Shown here: positions 51,922 to 64,000 of the stretch, in pieces
Numbering within the stretch: position 1 is the first letter of the stretch
Layout of the letters: every line of letters starts with the position of its first letter
Assembly: GCF_046105845.1 (NCBI RefSeq)
Contig: NZ_CP151004.1
Direction: 5' to 3' (one strand)
Length of the DNA stretch: 64,000 bases
DNA from: Escherichia coli
GTDB taxonomy: Bacteria > Pseudomonadota > Gammaproteobacteria > Enterobacterales > Enterobacteriaceae
Notes under the pieces: generated by a model
Database searches by the model: none
Told to the model about the DNA's origin: nothing
Seen by the model: the letters and a program-made list of their open reading frames with translations, nothing else
Program-made: the position numbers and the translations under genes

Positions 51922-53655
51922 GTGAAACAACAGATACAACTTCGTCGCCGTGAAGTCGATGAAACGGCCGACTTGCCCGCTGAATTGCCTCCCTTGCTGC
52001 GCCGTTTATATGCCAGCCGGGGTGTGCGTAGCGCGCAGGAACTGGAACGCAGTGTTAAAGGCATGCTGCCCTGGCAGCAACTGAGCGGCGTCGAAAAGGC
52101 CGTTGAGATCCTTTACAACGCTTTTCGCGAAGGAACGCGGATTATTGTGGTCGGTGATTTCGACGCCGACGGTGCCACCAGCACGGCTCTAAGCGTGCTG
52201 GCGATGCGCTCGCTTGGTTGCAGCAATATCGACTACCTGGTTCCAAACCGTTTCGAAGACGGTTACGGCTTAAGCCCGGAAGTGGTCGATCAGGCCCATG
52301 CCCGTGGCGCGCAGTTAATTGTTACCGTGGATAACGGTATTTCCTCCCATGTGGGGGTTGAACACGCTCGTTCGTTGGGCATTCCGGTTATTGTTACCGA
52401 TCACCATTTGCCGGGCGACACATTACCCGCAGCGGAAGCGATCATTAACCCTAACTTGCGCGACTGTAATTTCCCGTCGAAATCACTGGCAGGCGTGGGT
52501 GTGGCGTTTTATCTGATGCTGGCGCTGCGCACCTTTTTGCGCGATCAGGGCTGGTTTGATGAGCGCGGCATCGCAATTCCTAATCTGGCAGAACTGCTGG
52601 ATCTGGTAGCGTTGGGGACAGTGGCGGACGTCGTGCCGCTGGACGCTAATAATCGCATTCTGACCTGGCAGGGGATGAGTCGCATCCGTGCCGGAAAGTG
52701 CCGTCCAGGGATTAAAGCGCTGCTGGAAGTGGCAAACCGTGATGCACAAAAACTCGCCGCCAGCGATTTAGGTTTTGCGCTGGGGCCACGTCTCAATGCT
52801 GCCGGGCGACTGGACGATATGTCCGTCGGTGTGGCGCTGTTGCTGTGCGACAACATCGGCGAAGCGCGCGTGCTGGCAAATGAACTCGATGCGCTAAACC
52901 AGACGCGAAAAGAGATCGAACAAGGAATGCAAGTTGAAGCCCTGACCCTGTGCGAGAAACTGGAGCGCAGCCGTGACACGCTACCCGGCGGGCTGGCAAT
53001 GTATCACCCCGAATGGCATCAGGGCGTTGTCGGCATTCTGGCTTCGCGCATCAAAGAGCGTTTTCACCGTCCGGTTATCGCGTTTGCGCCAGCAGGTGAC
53101 GGTACGCTGAAAGGTTCCGGTCGCTCCATTCAGGGGCTGCATATGCGTGATGCGCTGGAGCGATTAGACACACTCTACCCCGGCATGATGCTCAAGTTTG
53201 GCGGTCATGCGATGGCGGCGGGTTTGTCGCTGGAAGAGGATAAATTCGAACTCTTTCAACAACGGTTTGGCGAACTGGTTACTGAGTGGCTGGACCCTTC
53301 GCTATTGCAAGGCGAAGTGGTGTCAGACGGTCCGTTAAGTCCAGCCGAAATGACCATGGAAGTGGCGCAGCTGCTGCGCGATGCTGGCCCGTGGGGGCAG
53401 ATGTTCCCGGAGCCGCTGTTTGACGGTCATTTCCGCCTTCTGCAACAACGACTGGTAGGCGAACGCCATTTGAAGGTCATGGTTGAACCGGTCGGCGGCG
53501 GCCCGCTGCTGGACGGCATTGCCTTTAACGTTGATACCGCCCTTTGGCCGGATAACGGCGTGCGCGAAGTGCAACTGGCTTATAAGCTTGATATCAACGA
53601 GTTTCGCGGCAATCGCAGCCTGCAAATTATCATCGACAATATCTGGCCAATTTAG
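51922..53655 (+). CDS. recJ: Single-stranded-DNA-specific 5'-3' exonuclease RecJ
   Basis: 577-aa ORF with GTG start; DHH motifs (DFDADGATS, DHH). Confidence 0.96.
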   Translation: MKQQIQLRRREVDETADLPAELPPLLRRLYASRGVRSAQELERSVKGMLPWQQLSGVEKAVEILYNAFREGTRIIVVGDFDADGATSTALSVLAMRSLGCSNIDYLVPNRFEDGYGLSPEVVDQAHARGAQLIVTVDNGISSHVGVEHARSLGIPVIVTDHHLPGDTLPAAEAIINPNLRDCNFPSKSLAGVGVAFYLMLALRTFLRDQGWFDERGIAIPNLAELLDLVALGTVADVVPLDANNRILTWQGMSRIRAGKCRPGIKALLEVANRDAQKLAASDLGFALGPRLNAAGRLDDMSVGVALLLCDNIGEARVLANELDALNQTRKEIEQGMQVEALTLCEKLERSRDTLPGGLAMYHPEWHQGVVGILASRIKERFHRPVIAFAPAGDGTLKGSGRSIQGLHMRDALERLDTLYPGMMLKFGGHAMAAGLSLEEDKFELFQQRFGELVTEWLDPSLLQGEVVSDGPLSPAEMTMEVAQLLRDAGPWGQMFPEPLFDGHFRLLQQRLVGERHLKVMVEPVGGGPLLDGIAFNVDTALWPDNGVREVQLAYKLDINEFRGNRSLQIIIDNIWPI

Positions 53656-53745
53656 CGTCATCTTCTCTATAAAAAAGAGCGTGGATTGGGTACAATCCCG
53701 CTCTTATCACCGCATTTTGACTAGCTCAAGAAAAGAAATCAGACC

Positions 53746-54844
53746 ATGTTTGAAATTAATCCGGTAAATAATCGCATTCAGGACCTCACGGAACGCTCCG
53801 ACGTTCTTAGGGGGTATCTTTGACTATGACGCCAAGAAAGAGCGTCTGGAAGAAGTAAACGCCGAGCTGGAACAGCCGGATGTCTGGAACGAACCCGAAC
53901 GCGCACAGGCGCTGGGTAAAGAGCGTTCCTCCCTCGAAGCCGTTGTCGACACCCTTGACCAAATGAAACAGGGGCTGGAAGATGTTTCTGGTCTGCTGGA
54001 ACTGGCTGTAGAAGCTGACGACGAAGAAACCTTTAACGAAGCCGTTGCTGAACTCGACGCTCTGGAAGAAAAACTGGCGCAGCTTGAGTTCCGCCGTATG
54101 TTCTCTGGCGAATATGACAGCGCCGACTGCTACCTCGATATTCAGGCGGGGTCTGGTGGTACGGAAGCACAGGACTGGGCGAGCATGCTTGAGCGTATGT
54201 ATCTGCGCTGGGCAGAATCGCGTGGTTTCAAAACTGAAATCATCGAAGAGTCGGAAGGTGAAGTGGCGGGTATTAAATCCGTGACGATCAAAATCTCCGG
54301 CGATTACGCTTACGGCTGGCTGCGTACAGAAACTGGCGTTCACCGCCTGGTGCGTAAGAGCCCGTTTGACTCCGGCGGTCGTCGCCACACGTCGTTCAGC
54401 TCCGCGTTTGTTTACCCGGAAGTTGATGACGATATTGATATCGAAATCAACCCGGCGGATCTGCGCATCGACGTTTATCGCGCGTCCGGCGCGGGCGGTC
54501 AGCACGTTAACCGTACCGAATCTGCGGTGCGTATTACCCACATCCCGACCGGGATCGTGACCCAGTGCCAGAACGACCGTTCCCAGCACAAGAACAAAGA
54601 CCAGGCCATGAAGCAGATGAAAGCGAAGCTTTATGAACTGGAGATGCAGAAGAAAAATGCCGAGAAACAGGCGATGGAAGATAATAAATCTGATATCGGC
54701 TGGGGCAGCCAGATTCGTTCTTATGTCCTTGATGACTCCCGCATTAAAGATCTGCGTACCGGGGTAGAAACCCGCAACACGCAGGCCGTGCTGGACGGCA
54801 GCCTGGATCAATTTATCGAAGCAAGTTTGAAAGCAGGGTTATGA
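53746..54844 (+). CDS. prfB: Peptide chain release factor 2, expressed through a programmed +1 frameshift
   Basis: Frame 0: ATG 53746 to codon 25 CUU (53818-53820) then in-frame UGA (53821-53823), giving [25 protein letters not shown]; +1 frame from GAC at 53822 continues [22 protein letters not shown]... to 54844 (ORF track 53963..54844). Total 365 aa; GGQ motif present. Confidence 0.95.
53806..53824 (+). promoter_or_regulatory. prfB autoregulatory frameshift site (internal SD + CUU UGA C)
   Basis: cttagggggtatctttgac: SD-like AGGGGG three nt upstream of the slippery CUU-UGA-C. Confidence 0.9.
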
Positions 54845-54853
54845 GGAACCAAC

Positions 54854-56371
54854 ATGTCTGAACAACACGCACAGGGCGCTGACGCGGTAGTCGATCTTAA
54901 CAATGAACTGAAAACGCGTCGTGAGAAGCTGGCGAACCTGCGCGAGCAGGGGATTGCCTTCCCGAACGATTTCCGTCGCGATCATACCTCTGACCAATTG
55001 CACGCAGAATTCGACGGTAAAGAGAACGAAGAACTGGAAGCGCTGAACATCGAAGTTGCCGTTGCTGGCCGCATGATGACCCGTCGTATTATGGGTAAAG
55101 CGTCTTTCGTTACCCTGCAGGACGTGGGGGGCCGCATTCAGCTGTACGTTGCCCGTGACGATCTGCCGGAAGGCATTTACAACGAGCAGTTCAAAAAATG
55201 GGACCTCGGCGACATCCTCGGCGCGAAAGGTAAACTGTTCAAAACCAAAACTGGCGAACTGTCTATCCACTGCACCGAGCTGCGTCTGCTGACCAAAGCA
55301 CTGCGTCCGCTGCCGGACAAATTCCACGGCTTGCAGGATCAGGAAGCGCGCTATCGTCAGCGTTATTTGGATCTCATCTCTAACGATGAATCCCGCAACA
55401 CCTTTAAAGTGCGCTCGCAGATCCTCTCTGGTATTCGCCAGTTCATGGTGAACCGCGGCTTTATGGAAGTTGAAACGCCGATGATGCAGGTGATCCCAGG
55501 CGGTGCCGCTGCGCGTCCGTTTATCACCCACCATAATGCGCTGGATCTCGACATGTACCTGCGTATCGCGCCGGAACTGTACCTCAAGCGTCTGGTGGTC
55601 GGTGGCTTCGAGCGTGTATTCGAAATCAACCGTAACTTCCGTAACGAAGGTATCTCCGTACGTCATAACCCAGAGTTCACCATGATGGAACTCTATATGG
55701 CTTACGCGGATTACAAAGATCTGATCGAGCTGACCGAATCGCTGTTCCGTACTCTGGCACAGGATATTCTCGGTAAGACGGAAGTGACCTACGGCGACGT
55801 GACGCTGGACTTCGGTAAACCGTTCGAAAAACTGACCATGCGTGAAGCGATCAAGAAATATCGCCCGGAAACCGACATGGCAGATCTGGACAACTTCGAC
55901 TCTGCGAAAGCGATTGCTGAATCTATCGGTATCCACGTTGAGAAGAGCTGGGGTCTGGGCCGTATCGTTACCGAGATCTTCGAAGAAGTGGCAGAAGCAC
56001 ATCTGATTCAGCCGACCTTCATTACTGAATATCCGGCAGAAGTTTCTCCGCTGGCGCGTCGTAACGACGTTAACCCGGAAATCACAGACCGCTTTGAGTT
56101 CTTCATTGGTGGTCGTGAAATCGGTAACGGCTTTAGCGAGCTGAATGACGCGGAAGATCAGGCGCAGCGCTTCCTGGATCAGGTTGCCGCGAAAGACGCA
56201 GGCGACGACGAAGCGATGTTCTACGACGAAGATTATGTCACCGCACTGGAACATGGCTTACCGCCGACAGCAGGTCTGGGAATTGGTATCGACCGTATGG
56301 TAATGCTGTTCACCAACAGCCATACCATCCGCGACGTTATTCTGTTCCCGGCGATGCGTCCGGTGAAATAA
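54854..56371 (+). CDS. lysS: Lysyl-tRNA synthetase, constitutive
   Basis: 505-aa [36 protein letters not shown]...; class II aaRS motifs. Confidence 0.97.
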
Positions 56372-56389
56372 GCATTACGTTATGCTCAC

Positions 56390-56415
56390 AACCCCGGCAA
56401 ATGTCGGGGTTTTTT
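56390..56415 (+). terminator. Terminator between convergent lysS and idi
   Basis: aaccccggcaaatgtcggggtttttt hairpin plus T-run; overlaps the idi stop codon. Confidence 0.7.
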
Positions 56416-56962
56416 AATTGTGCTGCGCGAAAGCAGACAACAATTTTCTTGCTTCACTATTGGCTGCCTGCATCACCATCCACGGACTGAACGCCCACGG
56501 TGTGGCATCAATACCGTGTAATACATCTGCTAAATCACACCATTGATAATCCATCACTTCATCATCGTTGATCTGTAATGCACTGGTCGTGCGTGCGGCA
56601 AATACCGGACACACTTCATTTTCCACAATGCCATTCGGATCGGTGGCGCGATAGCGAAAGTCAGGATAGATAGATTCAGGAGGCGTAATTTCCACGCCAA
56701 GCTCATAACGGCAACGGCGGATCACCGCGTCTTCGTTGCTTTCGCCCAGTTGTGGGTGCCCACAAACCGAGTTAGTCCACACGCCCGGCCACGCTTTTTT
56801 GCTAAGGGCGCGGCGAGTAACTAATAATTGCCCTTTGGCATTAAACAGCCAACTGGAGAACGCGAGATGTAAGAGAGTGTCTGCCGTGTGTGCGGCATAC
56901 TTTTCCAGCGTACCCGTGGGAACTCCCTGTGCATTCAATAAAATGACGTGTTCCGTTTGCAT
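56414..56962 (-). CDS. idi: Isopentenyl-diphosphate delta-isomerase (type 1, Nudix fold)
   Basis: 182-aa [44 protein letters not shown]... Confidence 0.95.
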
Positions 56963-57211
56963 AATTTCTCACATGTAATTCTGATCACTCATCATTATAG
57001 ATAATTGAAGAGTGAAATGATTAACCAAGTGAGCGTTTATCGACAACCGCCCGTTTTGAGCGGATGCCGACAGGTAAAAACCATTTAAAAAAGTAGCATC
57101 ATATATTTGAAGCGACTTTCAATGGCCATTGCAACACAGTCAGAAATGACAGGAATAGAGAGAGTAAAAAGCAACAACAGACTGAATATAGCGCGCATTA
57201 AAAGATTCATA

Positions 57212-58660
57212 TTATTCTCCATGCTCATTTTTCTTCAGCTTGCGCATCAGAAGCCACATACGTACTGTCCTGACTTTTAAATCTTTATCAGAGACGGATT
57301 CCTTCACCAGATCAGCATGATGCTGATAGCCATTAAAGAAGACGTTCAGCACAACGGCGCTAAGGGTTGCGAGCATAATGCCGCTATGCAGCAACGGTTG
57401 CAGTACGGCCGGTAACTTAGAAAAGAAATCGTGAGAGAGCGTCGGAGTCATGCCAACGCCGAGACTGATCGCCACAATATAGAGGTTGTAACGGTTAGTG
57501 GTGTAGTTACAGCGCGACAGAATTCGAATCCCTGTCGCCAGTACCATGCCGAACATCACCAGCCCAGCACCGCCCAGCACAAATTGCGGAATGGAGGCGA
57601 CCAGCACCGCCATTTTTGGCACCATGCCAAACAGGATTAATATAATTCCCGAAGAAATACACACCCAGCGGCTATGAACGCGCGTCACGCTAACCAGGCC
57701 AACGTTTTGTGAAAATGACGTGTGGGGGAAGCTGTTAAACGTTCCGCCTATCATTGTCCCTATGCCATCGACACGCAGCCCGCGAATAATATCGTGTGAA
57801 GAGAGTTTACGACCGACTATTTCACCCAGTGCCAGGAACATCCCCATCGACTCGATAAACACGATGATTAACACGGCAGTCATGGTCAGAATGGAAACGG
57901 GATCGAAAATCGGCATACCAAATGACATCGGCGTGACAATCGCAAACCATGAAGCATCATGTAGCCCGGATAAATTGACTTCATTCATCATCCACGAAAG
58001 TAAAAAGCCAAATACAATCCCCAGTAATACGGCGACGTTGGACATAAATCCTTTCGCATAGCGAGTAATGAGCAAGATAAAAATTAAGACGGCAAAGGAG
58101 ATCCCCAAATAAACGGGATTACCATATTGCGGATTCCCTTTACCTCCGGCGGCCCAGTCAATACCCACCTGAATGATGCTAAGTCCGATAGAAGTAATAA
58201 CCACACCGGTAACCAGTGGCGGGAATAAAGGCATCAAGCGACCGATAAGTGGCGCTAATAATGTGGTGATAAAACCCGCGGCGATAGTGGCACCAAATAT
58301 CCCCAGCAGGCCGATATCCGGGTTCATCCCAATGGCTATCATTGGTGTTACAGCGGCGAAGGTCACCGACATAATCACCGGCAGGCGGATCCCCATAAAG
58401 CGGCCGATACCGATACATTGCAATAATGTGACGATCCCGCAGCAAAAGAGATCCGAGCTAATGAGCATCGCAATAGCTTCTTTTGAGAGGCCCAGTCGGT
58501 CACCAATCATAAGTGGAACAGCGACTGCACCTGCGTACATGACAAGGACGTGTTGCAGACCGAGTATGATCAGCTTTCCTGGTGATAATATGCGGTCAAC
58601 CTCATCAGTTGGGCGGTCTTGCCCTGAAGATGAGGAAAGTTGGGAATCTATGGCGCTCAT
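57212..58660 (-). CDS. uacT: Nucleobase:cation symporter (NCS2) uric acid/xanthine permease
   Basis: ORF 57212..58789 trimmed to MSAIDSQLSSSSGQDRPTDEVDRILSPGKLIILGLQHVLVMYAGAV at 58660 with SD aaggag; 482 aa. Confidence 0.92.
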   Translation of the reverse strand: MSAIDSQLSSSSGQDRPTDEVDRILSPGKLIILGLQHVLVMYAGAVAVPLMIGDRLGLSKEAIAMLISSDLFCCGIVTLLQCIGIGRFMGIRLPVIMSVTFAAVTPMIAIGMNPDIGLLGIFGATIAAGFITTLLAPLIGRLMPLFPPLVTGVVITSIGLSIIQVGIDWAAGGKGNPQYGNPVYLGISFAVLIFILLITRYAKGFMSNVAVLLGIVFGFLLSWMMNEVNLSGLHDASWFAIVTPMSFGMPIFDPVSILTMTAVLIIVFIESMGMFLALGEIVGRKLSSHDIIRGLRVDGIGTMIGGTFNSFPHTSFSQNVGLVSVTRVHSRWVCISSGIILILFGMVPKMAVLVASIPQFVLGGAGLVMFGMVLATGIRILSRCNYTTNRYNLYIVAISLGVGMTPTLSHDFFSKLPAVLQPLLHSGIMLATLSAVVLNVFFNGYQHHADLVKESVSDKDLKVRTVRMWLLMRKLKKNEHGE

Positions 58661-59095
58661 CAGTGTTTCTCCTTTCGCCCGCCAGAGTAAAAAGCAACCG
58701 TTTACGTTAATGAAACTGTCTAAACACATGCTCGTGGAGTGCCAGTTTTTGCGAGGAAGGGGAGTTAGAGACAGGAATTGCGGAGGCAATCACATAATCG
58801 TGGTTAAACCACGAAAATGAGAAGAGAACCTGACAATGGAATTATCTGTAATTTTCTCATATTGATATTTCATTAATCATTCTGGCATGTCGCACTCTCG
58901 CTTTTAATCGTTTTTATCTGGATAGCGCTCTTTTGGTCGGCAATGTTGAAATAATGAAAGCGGCACAGATTGAGGGGCAATAATTTGAACTCAGTCGCAA
59001 AATTATAATTAAAACGGTCATGCTACCTAATATATGCCCGTTTATTGCATCGCGAAATTTGAGAAGACATAACTCATTAAATGAAAGGGATGCAA

Positions 59096-61015
59096 ATGAA
59101 TAAGTTTATCGCTGCTGAAGCTGCGGAATGTATAGGCTGTCATGCTTGTGAAATTGCCTGTGCGGTGGCACATAATCAAGAAAACTGGCCGCTGAGTCAC
59201 AGTGACTTTCGACCGCGTATCCACGTTGTAGGGAAAGGCCAGGCTGCGAATCCGGTGGCCTGCCATCACTGCAACAATGCTCCTTGCGTTACGGTTTGTC
59301 CGGTTAATGCTCTGACTTTCCAGCCCGATAGCGTACAACTGGACGAGCAAAAATGTATTGGTTGTAAAAGATGCGCAATCGCTTGCCCCTTTGGCGTCGT
59401 TGAGATGGTCGATACGATTGCGCAGAAATGCGACCTTTGTAACCAGCGCAGTTCCGGCACGCAAGCCTGTATTGAAGTCTGCCCAACACAGGCGTTACGG
59501 CTGATGGACGATAAAGTGTTGCAGCAGATAAAGGTGGCCCGCCAGCGCAAAACGGCAGCAGGAAAAGCGTCATCAGACGCTCAGCCATCTCGCAGTGCAG
59601 CGTTGCTCCCCGTTAACTCGCGTAAAGGCGCAGATAAAATTTCAGCGAGTGAACGGAAAACCCACTTTGGCGAAATCTATTGCGGGTTGGATCCACAACA
59701 AGCGACTTATGAGAGTGACCGCTGTGTTTATTGTGCCGAAAAAGCTAACTGCAACTGGCATTGCCCGCTGCATAACGCTATTCCGGATTACATCCGTCTG
59801 GTGCAGGAAGGAAAGATTATTGAAGCGGCAGAACTTTGCCACCAGACCAGTTCCTTACCAGAAATTTGCGGCAGAGTTTGCCCACAGGACCGTCTTTGTG
59901 AAGGCGCATGTACTTTGAAAGATCACTCTGGCGCAGTCACTATCGGTAATCTGGAACGCTACATCACCGATACCGCGCTGGCGATGGGCTGGCGTCCCGA
60001 TGTCAGCAAAGTTGTTCCCCGTAGCGAAAAAGTGGCGGTGATTGGCGCTGGGCCAGCAGGGTTAGGGTGTGCTGATATTCTGGCGCGCGCAGGAGTTCAG
60101 GTTGATGTCTTTGATCGCCATCCAGAAATTGGCGGTATGCTGACTTTTGGCATTCCTCCTTTCAAACTCGATAAAACGGTATTAAGCCAGCGGCGAGAGA
60201 TATTCACCGCAATGGGAATCGACTTTCATCTCAACTGTGAAATTGGCCGCGATATTACCTTTAGCGATTTAACTTCTGAATATGATGCAGTTTTCATCGG
60301 CGTGGGGACTTACGGGATGATGCGAGCAGATCTGCCGCATGAAGATGCGCCCGGTGTCATTCAGGCTCTACCGTTCCTGACTGCCCATACCCGCCAGCTC
60401 ATGGGATTGCCGGAGTCTGAAGAGTATCCGCTGACGGACGTGGAAGGTAAGCGAGTCGTGGTATTGGGCGGTGGCGATACGACAATGGATTGTTTGCGGA
60501 CTTCCATCCGCCTCAATGCCGCCAGCGTGACCTGCGCGTATCGTCGTGATGAAGTCAGTATGCCGGGCTCGCGCAAAGAGGTGGTTAATGCGCGCGAGGA
60601 AGGTGTCGAGTTTCAGTTCAATGTTCAACCGCAATATATCGCTTGTGACGAAGATGGGCGTTTAACTGCGGTGGGCCTGATTCGTACCGCCATGGGTGAG
60701 CCGGGGCCGGATGGTCGCCGTCGTCCTCGTCCGGTAGCGGGTTCAGAGTTTGAATTGCCCGCCGATGTTCTCATTATGGCCTTTGGTTTCCAGGCGCATG
60801 CCATGCCGTGGTTGCAGGGCAGCGGAATTAAACTCGATAAATGGGGCCTGATTCAAACCGGCGACGTTGGGTATTTACCTACCCAGACGCATCTGAAAAA
60901 AGTCTTTGCTGGTGGTGATGCAGTTCATGGCGCGGATCTGGTTGTCACTGCAATGGCCGCAGGAAGGCAGGCGGCGCGCGATATGTTAACTCTGTTTGAT
61001 ACGAAGGCATCGTGA
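59096..61015 (+). CDS. ygfT: Fused 4Fe-4S ferredoxin / FAD-NAD(P) oxidoreductase (glutamate synthase small-subunit-like)
   Basis: ORF 59081..61015 trimmed to [26 protein letters not shown] at 59096; Cys clusters N-terminally, [11 protein letters not shown] dinucleotide motif; 639 aa. Confidence 0.92.
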
Positions 61016-61503
61016 TGAAATCGTTAATTATCGTTAATCCGGCTGACTGTATTGGCTGCCGTACTTGTGAAGTAGCCTGTGTGGTCGCTCACCCTTCAGA
61101 ACAGGAGTTGAATGCCGATGTCTTTTTACCCCGGCTGAAGGTACAGCGACTGGACAGCATCAGTGCGCCGGTGATGTGCCATCAGTGTGAAAACGCCCCT
61201 TGTGTTGGCGCTTGCCCCGTGGGGGCGCTGACGATGGGCGAGCAGGTGGTGCAGACCAATTCTGCCCGTTGTATTGGCTGTCAGAGTTGCGTCAGTGCGT
61301 GCCCGTTTGGAATGATCACCATTCAGTCGTTGCCGGGGGATACCCGGCAACAAATCGTGAAATGCGATCTCTGTGAACAGCGGGAAGAGGGGCCAGCCTG
61401 CGTTGAATCTTGCCCGACACAGGCGCTGCAGTTGCTTACTGAAAGAGAACTCAGGCGAGTCCGCCAGCAGCGTATTGTTGCCAGCGGTGAGAATCCTCTG
61501 TGA
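61015..61503 (+). CDS. ygfS: 4Fe-4S ferredoxin-like protein
   Basis: ORF 61012..61503; ATG at 61015 overlaps the ygfT TGA; four CxxCxxCxxxCP-type clusters. Confidence 0.9.
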
Positions 61504-61538
61504 AAGAAATCTCCGCGCTGAAAGGCGCGGAGAATCTA

Positions 61539-62906
61539 TTAGATTGCCCAACCACCCGCGTAAAATGCGACCAGTGCGGCAGTAATGATCACCGTACCAA
61601 TATTCAACTTTTGCCATTCGCGAGCAAAGACACGGCCTACGACCAGTGTCACAAAGCCCAGCATAATACCGGTAACGATATTACAAGTCAGAACGATGAA
61701 CACGGCACACACCAGGCCAGCCATTGCGTCAATAAAATCGTTGAAATCCAGCTTCGAGACGTTACTTAACATCAGCAAACCCACGTACATCAGAGCGGGT
61801 GCAGTGGCGTAACCAGGGATCAAAAATGACAGCGGTGATAAGAACAGAATCAGCAGGAATAACGCCCCCACTACGGTTGCGGTCAACCCTGTTTTACCCC
61901 CGGCGGCGGTTCCTGCCGCTGATTCGATATAAACCGCTGCGGGCGCTGCGCCCACCAGGCCGGAGAATATTGAACTTACTGAGTCACTGGTCAGGGCTTT
62001 GCCGCCGTTGATGATCTGGTTGTCTTTATCCAACAAATTCGCCTGACCGGCGACGGCACGGATGGTGCCAGTGGCGTCGAACACTGCGGTCATCACCAAT
62101 GCCAGTACACTCGGAAGTACAGTTGGCTGGAGTGCGCCCATAATATCGAGGCTGAAAATCAGAGACTTACCATCTTCGCCAGTCAGGCTTGGCATCGCCA
62201 CCAGACCGTGGTACTTCACCGCTGGGTCAAAGATTAAGCCGATGATCGAAATTGCGATAATTACCAACAAGATCCCGCCTGGTACGCGGCACTTTTCCAG
62301 ACCGAAGATGACCGCCAGGCCCAGTAAGCTCATCATCACCGGGAAGGAGGTAAACGCACCGAGCGCCACCGGCAAGCCTTCAATCGGGTTTTTGATAACC
62401 ATTCCCACACCGTTAGCAGCAATCAGCAGCAGAAACAGGCCGATACCGATACCAGTACCGTGAGCGATACCCATCGGCAAATTACGTAAGATCCAGGTAC
62501 GCACACCGGTTACGGAAATGGCGGTGAAGATGACGCCCATCAGAAAGACCGCGCCCAGTGCGACAGGAACGCTAATTTGTTGCCCGAGTACCAGACTGAA
62601 TGCGGTAAACGCCGTCAAGGAAATCGCGCAACCAATCGCCATTGGCAAATTGGCCCACAACCCCATCAGCAACGAGCCGAAGCCCGCGACCAGACAGGTG
62701 GCAACAAACACAGCTGCGGGAGGAAAACCTGCTTTGCCCAGCATTCCCGGAACGACGATAACGGAATAAACCATGGCCAGAAAGGTCGTTAAGCCAGCCA
62801 GTACTTCCTGACGAACGGTACTGCCACGAGCGGTAATTTTAAAATAATTATCCAGCGCGCCCTGTGGCTTTGGTGCGTCCGGTGTTTGTAGGATGTCTCC
62901 AGACAT
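61539..62906 (-). CDS. ghxQ: Guanine/hypoxanthine permease (AzgA-like NCS2)
   Basis: 455-aa [51 protein letters not shown]... Confidence 0.92.
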
Positions 62907-62941
62907 AATGATGTCCTCACGAGGATGTTAAAGTTTTATTA

Positions 62942-64000
62942 TTAGTTGCGTTCGTACACCAGACGACCATCAACGTAGGTGCGGTAGATCGAACGGTCAT
63001 CGCCCAACGTCATCATCACGAACAATTTGTCGACTAAAGAAACAGAGTTGTCATAGCGCAGCTGCTGTAGCGGAGTGGCGGTGGGTTCCATCACCACGAA
63101 ATCAGCCTCTTTGCCAGGTAAAAAGTTGCCAATCAAATCGTCAAGGCCCAGAGATTTCGCTCCGCCGAGCGTGGCCAGGTAAAACGCTTCATATGCCGAG
63201 AGGCGATAGCCTTGTAATTGCAATACTTTGTAGGCTTCGTTCAGCGTTTGCAGCATGTTGAAAGTGGTTCCGGCACCGATATCCGTTCCCATGCCCACTT
63301 TAACTTTCTTCTGCCATGCTTTTTTCAAGTTGAATAAGCCGCTGCCGAGGTAAAGGTTGGAGGTCGGACAGAAAGCAATGCTGGATTTGGTTTCGCTGAG
63401 ACGATCCCACTCTTTTTCTTCGAGATGGACGCAGTGAGCAAAGACACAGTTTTTACCGGTCAGGCCGTACTGATGGTAAACATCCAGATAACCATCATGG
63501 TCAGGATAAAGCGATTTCACCCAGGCAATTTCATCTTTGTTTTCACAGAGATGGGTATGTACCCACGTATCCGGATATTCTTCTTTCAGGCGTTGCGCCA
63601 TCGCCATCTGTTCAGGAGATGAGGTAGGGGCGAAGCGTGGCGTAATCGCATACAACAGACGACCATTTTTGTGCCAGCGTTCGATCAGTTCTTTGCTTTG
63701 GTGATAGCTGCTTTCGGCAGTGTCTAGCAGATAATCCGGTGCGTTGCGGTCCATCATCACCTTACCGGCAATCATACGCATATTGATATGACTGGCGGCT
63801 TCAAACAGCGCATCAACGGATTGCGGATGAACAGTGCCAAACACCAGAGCCGTGGTGGTTCCGTTACGTAAAAGCTGCTTGATGAAGAACGCCGACATTT
63901 CGCGGGCGTACTCTAAATCCTCATAACGACGTTCAGTAGGGAAGGTGTGTTTATTCAACCACTCCAGCAATTGTTCACCATAGGCCCCCACCATTTCACT
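62942..64000 (-). CDS. guaD: Guanine deaminase, C-terminal part (N-terminus beyond window end)
   Basis: Minus-strand frame open to the window edge; amidohydrolase-fold sequence ending ...YRTYVDGRLVYERN; the ORF-track Met at 63994 is internal. Confidence 0.88.
   Translation of the reverse strand, partial: SEMVGAYGEQLLEWLNKHTFPTERRYEDLEYAREMSAFFIKQLLRNGTTTALVFGTVHPQSVDALFEAASHINMRMIAGKVMMDRNAPDYLLDTAESSYHQSKELIERWHKNGRLLYAITPRFAPTSSPEQMAMAQRLKEEYPDTWVHTHLCENKDEIAWVKSLYPDHDGYLDVYHQYGLTGKNCVFAHCVHLEEKEWDRLSETKSSIAFCPTSNLYLGSGLFNLKKAWQKKVKVGMGTDIGAGTTFNMLQTLNEAYKVLQLQGYRLSAYEAFYLATLGGAKSLGLDDLIGNFLPGKEADFVVMEPTATPLQQLRYDNSVSLVDKLFVMMTLGDDRSIYRTYVDGRLVYERN

Follow-up and report, generated by a model that had tools for sequence, protein, structure and literature searches.

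The window analysed here, 64,000 nucleotides of Escherichia coli DNA, ends in the well-known E. coli uacT-ygfT-ygfS-ghxQ-guaD locus (table 1), which sequence matching recovers (57212-64000) in 5372 of 5426 complete E. coli genomes. Open reading frames, Pfam and matching records place all five genes where a preliminary description of the sequence had put them, and the names uacT and guaD follow the annotation in the matching E. coli records. Gene by gene, DNA identity to K-12 is 97.8-99.3%, and at the protein level the four genes that are complete reach 99.4-100% identity (UacT 99.6%, GhxQ 100%); guaD is cut by the window end, with only its C-terminal ~350 codons inside, and xanQ lies just beyond, near ghxQ and guaD. 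The divergent region between uacT and ygfT (58661-59095) has the 435 bp given earlier, and the overlap of ygfT and ygfS is likewise real: in GTGATG one base is common to the TGA stop and the ATG start; a ygfS start at the upstream GTG would make the overlap 4 nt. Translation of ygfS is probably coupled to that of ygfT, and the hairpin that follows ygfS is a probable terminator.

Table 1. Features of the locus, with positions in the 64,000-nt window.
Feature	Position	Strand	Remarks
uacT (ygfU), urate:H+ symporter, NCS2 family	57212-58660	minus	482 aa; Xan_ur_permease E=4e-124
PurR-like box AAGCAACCGTTTACGT in uacT leader	58692-58707		32-47 nt upstream of uacT start codon
Candidate sigma-54-type promoter TGGCACTCCACGAGCA toward uacT	58729-58744	minus	-24 GG, -12 GC
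Operator-like motif TTCTCATATTGATAT, consensus TTMTCA-N3-TGAKAA	58854-58868		recurs across cluster
Conserved element ATGCCCGTTTATTGCA (TnGCmC-N5-TTGCA)	59034-59049	plus	47-62 nt upstream of ygfT ATG
ygfT (also uacF)	59096-61015	plus	639 aa; ferredoxin and GltD-like modules
PurR motif GGGCAAGCGATTGCGC inside ygfT coding region	59373-59388	minus	exact match to published ChIP-chip motif
ygfS, four-[4Fe-4S] HycB/HydN-type ferredoxin	61015-61503	plus	162 aa; Pfam Fer4 families
GC-rich hairpin between convergent ygfS and ghxQ	61510-61533		9 pairs, 7 G-C; T-run after, on minus strand
ghxQ (ygfQ), guanine/hypoxanthine NCS2 permease	61539-62906	minus	455 aa; Xan_ur_permease E=1e-80
guaD (ygfP), guanine deaminase	62942-64000 (window end)	minus	Amidohydro_1 E=2e-69

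Besides ferredoxin and GltD-like modules, Pfam recognizes no catalytic domain in YgfT: residues ~1-140 form a 4Fe-4S dicluster region, followed by Fer4_20 (188-298) and Pyr_redox_2 (312-623). Judged by sequence, the N-terminal part (aa 1-~140) is a four-cluster ferredoxin module of the HycB/HydN type, with HycB as its best solved chain (7z0s_B, E=1e-30). YgfS, whose 16 Cys are arranged as four CxxCxxCxxxC(P) motifs, also finds HycB of formate hydrogenlyase first (7z0s_B, E=8e-32) and then HycB3/HycB4; its sequence identity with the YgfT N-terminus is 49%, with HycB 46% and with HydN 44%. In the GltD-like module (aa ~176-631), residue-level alignment with 6s6s_G (E=2e-109) indicates that YgfT keeps both motifs for [4Fe-4S] clusters as well as those for FAD and NADPH; the NADPH motif GGGDTxMD...YRRD (...AYRRD in YgfT) also occurs in the NADPH-dependent glutamate synthase small subunit and in NfnB. 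Together, the two proteins are predicted to hold ten [4Fe-4S] clusters (four in YgfS, four in the YgfT N-terminus and two in the GltD-like part), one FAD and one NADPH site.

The preliminary description had proposed a search for FNR and purine-regulator sites between uacT and ygfT; no FNR box was found in that region (58661-59095), and the purine-regulator part holds, with PurR boxes and PurR ChIP-chip data. The PurR-like box in the uacT leader is the sole match to ACGCAAACGTTTGCGT at up to three mismatches in the window, where 0.5 would be expected by chance, and is kept in Escherichia and Citrobacter, not in Klebsiella aerogenes; some 90 nt separate it from the PurR interval published from ChIP, so that PurR may, rather than does, bind there. 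The motif reported for "ygfT-ygfS" from PurR ChIP-chip (Cho et al. 2011) falls on YgfT codons C93-A-I-A-C97-P98 of an Fe-S motif and may thus owe something to coding constraint. In the putative sigma-54 promoter of uacT, neither the -24 GG and -12 GC nor the distance between them varies between E. coli and K. aerogenes, and this site scores highest in each of the orthologous divergent regions; its counterpart in Mixta, Erwinia, Serratia and Buttiauxella appears to point at an xdh-like gene. The operator-like 15-mer, a candidate upstream activating site for YgeV, recurs exactly in the ygeV/ygeW intergenic region, and a perfect palindrome, TTATCATTATGATAA, is present between mocA and ygfK; in seven genera, related sites are found at 170-340 nt upstream of ygfT, and several genera also have them upstream of ygeW and ygfK. 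The element closest to ygfT holds its place in 9 of 11 orthologous loci, with a correctly spaced sigma-54-like -12 element, although the -24 GG is absent each time; alternatively, it may combine a sigma-70 -35 hexamer with a factor site.

At the outset, the locus had been proposed to have an anaerobic redox function on purines or urate, biochemically undefined, and the literature bears out both parts. [quoted passage not shown] Urate strongly induces ygfT, and aegA modestly; ygfT belongs to a YgeV co-expression group with uacT, xdhABC, ygeWXY, hyuA, ygfK, ssnA, ygfM and xdhD, and its expression is lower in a ygeV mutant. NCBI already names YgfT "formate-dependent uric acid utilization protein". 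In neither of the two reconstitutions of the 2,8-dioxopurine pathway published in 2025 is YgfT or YgfS assigned a reaction. That pathway requires a net four-electron input, and its two reductive steps are assigned to XdhD-YgfM (urate to 2,8-dioxopurine) and YgfK (dearomatisation). Purified XdhD-YgfM, in which XdhD co-purifies with YgfM, its own FAD subunit, reduces urate with NADH; YgfK is active in vitro, requires NADPH and is unable to use NADH. On the formate side, FDH-H is thought to serve several ferredoxin partners, and YgfS, YgfT, AegA, HydN, YsaA and HycB have been described as a paralogous group. In two-hybrid assays HycB, HydN and YsaA interact with FdhF, and AegA interacts with HycB, HyfA, HydN and YsaA; AegA-FdhF signals were weak only, and deletion of aegA left dye-linked FDH-H activity unchanged. 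For AegA, the authors concluded that no interaction with FDH-H takes place.

Gene context across genera ties the pair both to purine genes and to formate dehydrogenase. Co-occurrence with xanthine-dehydrogenase-family and purine-catabolic genes, for which the preliminary description had proposed phylogenetic profiling, is strong across genera. In ten genera the pair is a neighbour of pathway genes, and no more than 10 kb separate it from genes of the 2,8-dioxopurine pathway or the XDH family in Escherichia, Citrobacter, Klebsiella, Salmonella, Mixta, Erwinia, Pantoea, Serratia and Buttiauxella. Because this linkage exists alongside purine-regulator sites, the purine assignment stands. In Mixta, Erwinia, Pantoea, Serratia and Buttiauxella the pair is divergent from an xdh-like gene, with a control region common to both; in K. 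aerogenes and S. enterica subsp. diarizonae it adjoins ssnA-ygfK instead. In these last two, a selenocysteine-type fdhF, whose product is 92-93% identical to E. coli FdhF, adjoins uacT and ygfT-ygfS. In Erwinia oleae and Pantoea sp., ygfS is followed in the same orientation by a Cys-type fdhF paralogue (61% identical), with either 14 nt between the two genes or an 8-nt overlap, and ygfT-ygfS-fdhF form an operon in Erwinia and Pantoea.

Several known systems share parts of this architecture. AegA of E. coli, 54.8% identical to YgfT, likewise fuses a four-cluster ferredoxin to a GltD-like module and has the same published phenotype and proposed role; yet aegA stands alone beside narQ, with neither a ferredoxin partner nor purine genes nearby, whereas ygfT lies within the purine cluster and has ygfS as its probably coupled partner. 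YgfS and the YgfT N-terminus, both of them four-cluster ferredoxins, share 44-46% identity with HycB of HycB-FdhF in formate hydrogenlyase (7z0s) and with HydN, and YsaA belongs to the same paralogous group; HycB passes electrons to membrane hydrogenase 3, whereas the YgfS/YgfT chain appears to end in a soluble FAD/NADPH module. HycB3/HycB4 of hydrogen-dependent CO2 reductase (7qv7), of the same ferredoxin family as YgfS (E=1e-28 to 6e-28), link an FdhF-type enzyme with another redox enzyme, an [FeFe] hydrogenase, and form filaments, but no hydrogenase genes occur at the ygfT-ygfS locus. Residues 176-631 of YgfT can be aligned over their whole length with GltD (6s6s_G, 2vdc_G), NfnB (4ylf_B, 5jca_L) and the N-terminal portion of dihydropyrimidine dehydrogenase (1gt8_A); unlike them, YgfT has no GltB, NfnA or FMN/pyrimidine partner and carries a fused HycB-like ferredoxin instead. 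YgfK (DOPOR), of the same co-expression group, shares Fer4_20 and Pyr_redox_2 with YgfT, but is itself an NADPH:2,8-dioxopurine oxidoreductase of 1032 aa with large additional N- and C-terminal domains that YgfT lacks; it is in these domains of YgfK that the authors' structural model predicts an FMN site.

Overall, we favour, with moderate confidence, a model in which YgfT-YgfS is an electron-transfer module with FdhF as formate-side donor, and not a purine-converting enzyme. The published genetics and expression, the fdhF linkage, the HycB-like ferredoxins, the retained NADPH and FAD sites and the NADPH need of YgfK all argue for it, and HycB and HycB3/HycB4 bind FdhF in formate hydrogenlyase and CO2 reductase complexes. 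FdhF would dock on a HycB/HydN-like ferredoxin module, most plausibly YgfS, and formate electrons would travel the cluster chain to the YgfT FAD and on to NADP+ (or the pathway reductases). The identity of the genes, their linkage, the cofactor motifs and the published expression and genetic data are shown; from these we infer an FdhF-YgfS-YgfT complex, electron flow away from formate and NADP+ as acceptor, in effect a soluble formate:NADP+ oxidoreductase. Against this stand the weak signals of AegA with FdhF, a pathway that runs in vitro without either protein, the absence of ygfS in Citrobacter sp. R56 and Arsenophonus, the 1.27 Mb that separate E. coli fdhF from the locus and, among Escherichia species, a divergence of YgfT and YgfS that is faster than that of the adjacent genes, in keeping with an accessory role.

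The pair might instead be a dedicated low-potential donor wired directly to a molybdenum enzyme (XdhD or a fused xdh-like protein), in which electrons that enter from formate through FdhF, from NADPH through the YgfT FAD, or by both routes, would reach the [2Fe-2S] clusters of the dehydroxylase and bypass free NAD(P)H. The pairing with an xdh-like gene in five genera would suit such wiring, as would the Clostridium sporogenes enzyme, which takes neither NADH nor NADPH; and with the xanthine/urate couple near -360 mV, formate would be thermodynamically a better donor than NADH. Nonetheless, E. coli XdhD has YgfM and works with NADH, the pair adjoins ssnA-ygfK and no xdh-like gene in K. aerogenes and S. 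diarizonae, and the intact NADPH site of YgfT would be useless in a pure formate-to-molybdenum wire, so that we regard this arrangement as rather improbable. The proximity of the GltD-like module to NfnB chains (4ylf_B, E=2e-86; 5jca_L, E=8e-86), its occurrence in solved ~1170-residue chains (8oh5_C, 9bov_A) deposited as formate dehydrogenase or molybdopterin oxidoreductase, and a review that raised the possibility for AegA could point to an NfnB-type bifurcating or confurcating flavoenzyme joining NADPH, a low-potential cluster chain on the formate/FdhF side and a third partner. Yet no NfnA-like [2Fe-2S]/FAD partner gene lies beside ygfT in any locus examined, and YgfT is nearer to the non-bifurcating glutamate synthase small subunit than to NfnB; such a mechanism is unlikely.

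Electrons might also run the other way, the module serving as an outlet for purine oxidation, from NADPH or from XdhABC/XdhD acting on hypoxanthine and xanthine, to FdhF (CO2 reduction) or hydrogenase-linked ferredoxins. The flanking ghxQ, guaD and xanQ do serve oxidative purine entry, and the two-hybrid partners of AegA are compatible with this direction; but formate stimulates urate consumption and is not its product, the ygfT inducer is the substrate of the reductive branch and the pathway consumes electrons, all of which leave reverse flow very unlikely. Direct reduction of urate or another purine intermediate by YgfT, allowed for in the 2019 proposal and in line with the domains common to YgfT and YgfK, is more doubtful still and indeed highly improbable: YgfT has no substrate-binding catalytic domain, the modelled FMN site for substrate reduction is a feature of YgfK, and both reductive steps already belong to XdhD and YgfK. 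GltD-like modules of glutamate synthase, dihydropyrimidine dehydrogenase and Nfn, moreover, deliver their electrons to a catalytic site that lies outside the module.

The genetic link of the YgfT-YgfS pair to anaerobic, formate-dependent urate breakdown is already published; to this, our analysis adds comparative gene context and the mapping of cofactor and regulatory sites. Under the formate:NADP+ model, urate would be imported by the uacT product, ghxQ and guaD would bring guanine and hypoxanthine into the same purine pool, and the locus would be co-regulated with the rest of the cluster via sigma-54 and YgeV, with PurR binding nearby. The module would then feed both reductive steps of the pathway, XdhD-YgfM on urate and the NADPH-dependent dearomatisation by YgfK.

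The uacT–guaD locus is an ordinary one, already annotated and with its functional context published, and the preliminary description had read it correctly. The two NCS2 permeases and the guanine deaminase that it placed around ygfT-ygfS are borne out by ORFs, Pfam and matching annotations, the uacT/ygfT divergent region indeed spans 435 bp, and the overlap of the ygfT stop with the ygfS start is found in GTGATG, with one base common to both. The stretch 57212-64000 is matched in 5372 of 5426 complete E. coli genomes, with the same gene names annotated (megablast), and ygfT is there called "formate-dependent uric acid utilization protein YgfT". Identity to K-12 is 97.8-99.3% for the DNA, taken gene by gene, and 99.4-100% for the four complete proteins. 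Past the window end, the matching E. coli chromosome record (L001) continues with xanQ, xdhD, ygfM, ssnA, ygfK, mocA, yqeC, yqeB, yqeA (arcC), hyuA, ygeY, ygeX (dpaL), and ygeW. Rfam gave no match in window 53000-64000 at E up to 0.1. On the other side of uacT, idi departs from its K-12 counterpart more than any other gene of the neighbourhood does (DNA identity 93.8% and protein identity 95.6%, vs. 98-99% DNA identity for its neighbours), and the 249-bp idi–uacT gap holds, by coordinate transfer from L001, two micro-ORFs, yqfH (24 codons including stop) and yqfG (42 codons including stop), the end of the latter lying one base from the uacT stop. Farther off, prfB contains a programmed +1 frameshift; only the frame that follows the shift (53963-54844) is in the ORF list, and in the matching genome the CDS is annotated as two pieces.

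Coordinates of the features discussed (window positions unless a comparison locus is named)
Feature	Position	Strand or direction	Description
prfB	~53746-54844		programmed +1 frameshift
idi	56414-56962		
yqfH, yqfG	~57017-57210		micro-ORFs in the idi–uacT gap
uacT	57212-58660	minus	ORF; NCS2 permease by Pfam
uacT/ygfT divergent region	58661-59095		
PurR-like box	58692-58707		uacT leader; 3 mismatches to consensus
Sigma-54-type promoter TGGCACTCCACGAGCA	58744-58729	towards uacT	-24 GG, -12 GC, spacing as TGGCAC-N5-TTGCW
Operator-like motif TTCTCATATTGATAT (TTMTCA-N3-TGAKAA)	58854-58868		about 115 bp upstream of the uacT sigma-54-type promoter
TnGCmC-N5-TTGCA element	59034-59049		upstream of ygfT; sigma-54-like -12 element and spacing
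ygfT	59096-61015	plus	ORF; Pfam 4Fe-4S dicluster region, Fer4_20, and Pyr_redox_2
PurR ChIP-chip motif GGGCAAGCGATTGCGC	59373-59388		exact match, inside ygfT
ygfS	61015-61503	plus	ORF; all-ferredoxin protein by Pfam
ghxQ	61539-62906	minus	ORF; NCS2 permease by Pfam
guaD	62942 to window end, 3' part only	minus	ORF; amidohydrolase by Pfam
Operator-like motif in yqeC, E. coli	L001 38403-38417		yqeC 3' end
Operator-like motif in yqeC, K. aerogenes	L017 18475		yqeC 3' end
Operator-like motif in yqeC, S. diarizonae	L023 15352		yqeC 3' end
ygfT–ghxQ gap, Citrobacter sp. R56	L004 11911-11975		63 nt
Cys-type fdhF paralogue, Erwinia oleae	L020 12456-14606	same as ygfT-ygfS	3' of ygfT-ygfS
Cys-type fdhF paralogue, Pantoea sp.	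L024 12452-14602	same as ygfT-ygfS	3' of ygfT-ygfS

An anaerobic purine or urate redox function, as the preliminary description proposed from gene context, is correct and already in the literature, so that the link of ygfT to formate-dependent urate breakdown is not new. According to papers that cite it, the study of Iwadate & Kato (2019) found ygfT, aegA, and ygeV to be involved in anaerobic urate consumption dependent on formate and FDH-H, and proposed that AegA and YgfT carry formate dehydrogenase electrons to NADP+ or urate. In addition, urate strongly induces ygfT, a ygeV mutant shows lower ygfT expression, and the YgeV co-expression group (iModulon) comprises ygfT, uacT, xdhABC, ygeWXY, hyuA, ygfK, ssnA, ygfM, and xdhD. 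The pathway itself has been reconstituted in two 2025 preprints: XdhD-YgfM carries out the reduction of urate to 2,8-dioxopurine, YgfK together with SsnA removes the aromaticity of the ring and opens it, and HyuA, YgeW/YqeA, YgeY, and YgeX complete the route to pyruvate. Neither preprint gives YgfT or YgfS a reaction, and one of them terms AegA and "UacF" (YgfT) "uncharacterized oxidoreductases"; the pair thus remains, as first stated, not biochemically defined. A search with the name uacF returned almost only unrelated acronyms. As a finding of a genome scan, the locus holds nothing beyond annotation and literature; the residual question, that of the reaction and the partners of YgfT-YgfS, is sharpened by four comparative results given below: that fdhF is linked to the pair, that the NADPH site is intact, that a sigma-54 promoter is conserved, and that an operator motif is present.

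Both proteins are built from modules with well-studied relatives. Read from their translations, YgfS and residues 1-140 of YgfT each have 16 Cys arranged as four CxxCxxCxxxC(P) cluster motifs, the pattern by which the HycB/HydN-type four-cluster ferredoxins of ~160-200 aa, small subunits of FDH-H, are recognised, and Pfam gives Fer4_11, Fer4_7, and Fer4_9 matches. The two share 49% identity with each other and 44-46% with HydN and HycB, and identities within the set YgfS, YgfT-N, AegA-N, HydN, and HycB range over 44-51%. Their best solved matches are HycB of formate hydrogenlyase (7z0s_B) and HycB3/HycB4 of the hydrogen-dependent CO2 reductase. A published tree groups YgfS, YgfT, AegA, HydN, YsaA, HycB, and HyfA as paralogues; the same study found that FdhF interacts with HycB, HydN, and YsaA, and argued that FDH-H serves several redox partners. 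Over its full length, the remainder of YgfT (residues ~176-631) can be aligned both to the glutamate synthase small subunit (6s6s_G, E=2e-109) and to NfnB. It includes Fer4_20 (E=6e-37), and alignment shows two Cys motifs for two [4Fe-4S] clusters that match those of 6s6s_G, the FAD-binding Rossmann motif GxGxxG aligned with its GltD counterpart, and a second Rossmann fold with the GGGDTxMD...YRRD signature of NADPH-using members, from which we infer that the nicotinamide site is specific for NADPH. In these cluster, FAD, and NAD(P)H motifs YgfT resembles the glutamate synthase small subunit, NfnB, and the DPD N-terminus, yet these work with a separate catalytic partner (GltB, NfnA, or an FMN domain, respectively), whereas no gene for such a partner adjoins ygfT in any locus examined; where the relatives have it, the GltD-like module has the fused HycB-like ferredoxin and YgfS. 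Taken together, these motifs predict ten [4Fe-4S] clusters, one FAD, and one NADPH site, and the pair has no substrate-binding catalytic domain. Judged from its sequences, YgfT-YgfS appears to be an electron wire with a nicotinamide port.

Homologues of ygfT at 60-70% identity are spread across Enterobacterales, and in the representative library the full two-module architecture falls almost entirely within a single 50%-identity cluster, the other matches being GltD-like proteins of other architectures. A genome-collection scan with exact peptide words of YgfT returned at least 12 loci, and the wider context was obtained from protein matches and contig look-ups. Except in Arsenophonus, ygfT-ygfS is linked to the pathway genes xdhD, ygfK, ssnA, hyuA, and ygeWXY (L001 annotation, tblastn maps, Pfam neighbourhoods), so the co-occurrence with xanthine dehydrogenase-family and purine-catabolic genes that the preliminary description proposed to check is strong across the genera mapped. 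Other Escherichia species and Citrobacter sp. MGH106 retain the E. coli order around the pair. In K. aerogenes and S. enterica subsp. diarizonae, fdhF and uacT precede the divergent ygfT-ygfS, followed by ssnA-ygfK-mocA-yqeC-yqeB-yqeA-hyuA; this fdhF adjoins uacT, encodes a protein with 92-93% identity to E. coli FdhF, and retains the UGA selenocysteine codon. In Mixta, Serratia, and Buttiauxella the pair diverges from a fused Mo+FAD xdh-like gene, with a [2Fe-2S] subunit gene (Pfam-confirmed for Mixta and Serratia), mocA, and ygeWXY nearby, and ygeV also present in Mixta and Serratia. Erwinia oleae and Pantoea sp. share this xdh-like arrangement, and in both the third place in a ygfT-ygfS-fdhF operon is taken by an fdhF paralogue of the Cys type (61% identity to FdhF, Cys replacing Sec140), separated from ygfS by a 14-nt gap or overlapping it by 8 nt. 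In four genera, therefore, fdhF adjoins ygfT-ygfS or shares its operon, and this recurrent linkage provides independent comparative support for an FDH-H connection of YgfT-YgfS. Loci of the AegA type have no purine genes nearby.

The pair is not uniformly kept. In Citrobacter sp. R56, where ygfT is 80% identical, ygfS is absent, since only 63 nt separate ygfT from ghxQ; Arsenophonus (L019) has ygfT and a permease only, likewise without ygfS. Among Escherichia and Citrobacter species (comparison loci L002, L003, and L005, 10001-12405), YgfT is conserved at 90-93% and YgfS at 83-92%, vs. 96-99% for the flanking UacT, GhxQ, GuaD, XanQ, and XdhD, which suggests weaker constraint on the pair than on its neighbours. 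Escherichia sp. MOD1-EC7003 (L007 10001-16200) presents a separate case: ygfT ends after about codon 292, beyond it lie a LysM/M23 peptidase, a Trp_Tyr_perm-family transporter, a thiolase fragment, and a sugar transporter, and none of ghxQ, guaD, xanQ, and xdhD is found within 10 kb. The arrangement resembles the outcome of a large deletion that removed the purine cluster entirely and had one of its ends within ygfT.

What, then, might the pair do? The best-supported reading is that FdhF would dock on a HycB-like module, most plausibly YgfS, and that formate electrons would run along the cluster chain to the FAD of YgfT and there reduce NADP+. It is favoured because YgfK needs NADPH and cannot use NADH, because the pathway consumes four electrons per urate, because formate and FDH-H are required in vivo (according to the papers citing the 2019 study), because the NADPH-type site of YgfT is retained, and because fdhF is linked to ygfT-ygfS in four genera. 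Against it, the reconstituted pathway runs without YgfT-YgfS, the published two-hybrid tests of AegA gave only weak signals with FdhF, and ygfS is dispensable in some lineages. In rival schemes, YgfT-YgfS could be wired directly to the molybdenum enzyme, whose xdh-like gene is the divergent neighbour of the pair in several genera; YgfT could perform an Nfn-like bifurcation, its GltD-like module being alignable with NfnB over its whole length but without an adjoining NfnA gene; or the pair could run in reverse, as an electron outlet. That YgfT is the reductase itself is unlikely, since it lacks a catalytic domain.

The preliminary description had proposed a search of the divergent region for FNR and purine-regulator sites. 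The FNR box TTGAT-N4-ATCAA has no match there at up to 2 mismatches, and its 38 matches window-wide equal the chance expectation, so FNR control was rejected as a sequence-supported idea. For PurR, published ChIP-chip data include two intervals, one at ygfK-ssnA and a strong one labelled "ygfT-ygfS", whose motif falls on codons C93-AIA-C97-P98 of ygfT, an Fe-S cluster motif. The divergent region holds a candidate 16-bp PurR box that fits the consensus better, is the only one in the 64-kb window, and is conserved in Escherichia and Citrobacter; its distance from the "ygfT-ygfS" interval is about 90 nt.

Window-wide, the numbers of sigma-54 and sigma-70 consensus matches do not exceed chance, so only position and cross-species conservation carry weight. 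For the sigma-54-type promoter of uacT, the GG, the GC, and their spacing are invariant from E. coli to Klebsiella, and a near-consensus counterpart precedes the xdh-like gene in other genera; we predict that a sigma-54 promoter drives uacT and, in those genera, the xdh-like gene. A literature search for a link of ygfU with rpoN found nothing. On the ygfT side, the TTGCA element recurs 38-51 nt 5' of the ATG in 9 of 11 loci and is correctly spaced, but the -24 GG is never present in nine genera, and a sigma-54 promoter for ygfT was not accepted. As for the operator-like motif, the ygeV/ygeW intergenic region holds an identical 15-mer, the mocA/ygfK intergenic region a perfect palindrome (TTATCATTATGATAA), and other genera have related sites upstream of ygfT, ygeW, and ygfK. 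It is probably a common operator of the purine cluster, with YgeV, a sigma-54 activator, as the candidate binder. Within the 3' end of yqeC, just before yqeB, E. coli, K. aerogenes, and S. diarizonae also carry the motif as TTCTCAATGTGAGAA or TTCTCAAAATGAGAA, and it may there mark an internal promoter for yqeB. One-mismatch matches at window 22343, 26118, and 27596 bring the count, with 58854, to four vs. 0.38 expected; all three lie inside long ORFs and were set aside as probably due to chance.

Overall, we tentatively suggest, at somewhat less than even confidence, that enterobacteria possess a third FDH-H complex beside the two formate hydrogenlyases: a soluble FdhF-YgfS-YgfT formate:NADP+ oxidoreductase devoted to powering reductive urate degradation, which may hand electrons to the molybdenum dehydroxylase directly or by confurcation and would be switched on with the whole cluster by YgeV via TTMTCA-N3-TGAKAA and sigma-54 promoters. 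Host urate levels and gout are influenced by gut bacteria that break down urate anaerobically, and E. coli strains are being engineered to make use of this. The enzymes of the pathway are now defined, but not the source of its reducing power in vivo or the basis of its formate requirement. If YgfT-YgfS with FdhF does supply formate-driven NADPH or low-potential electrons, the pair would be an obvious co-overexpression target for uricolytic probiotics, and would also fill one remaining gap among the FDH-H partner proteins.
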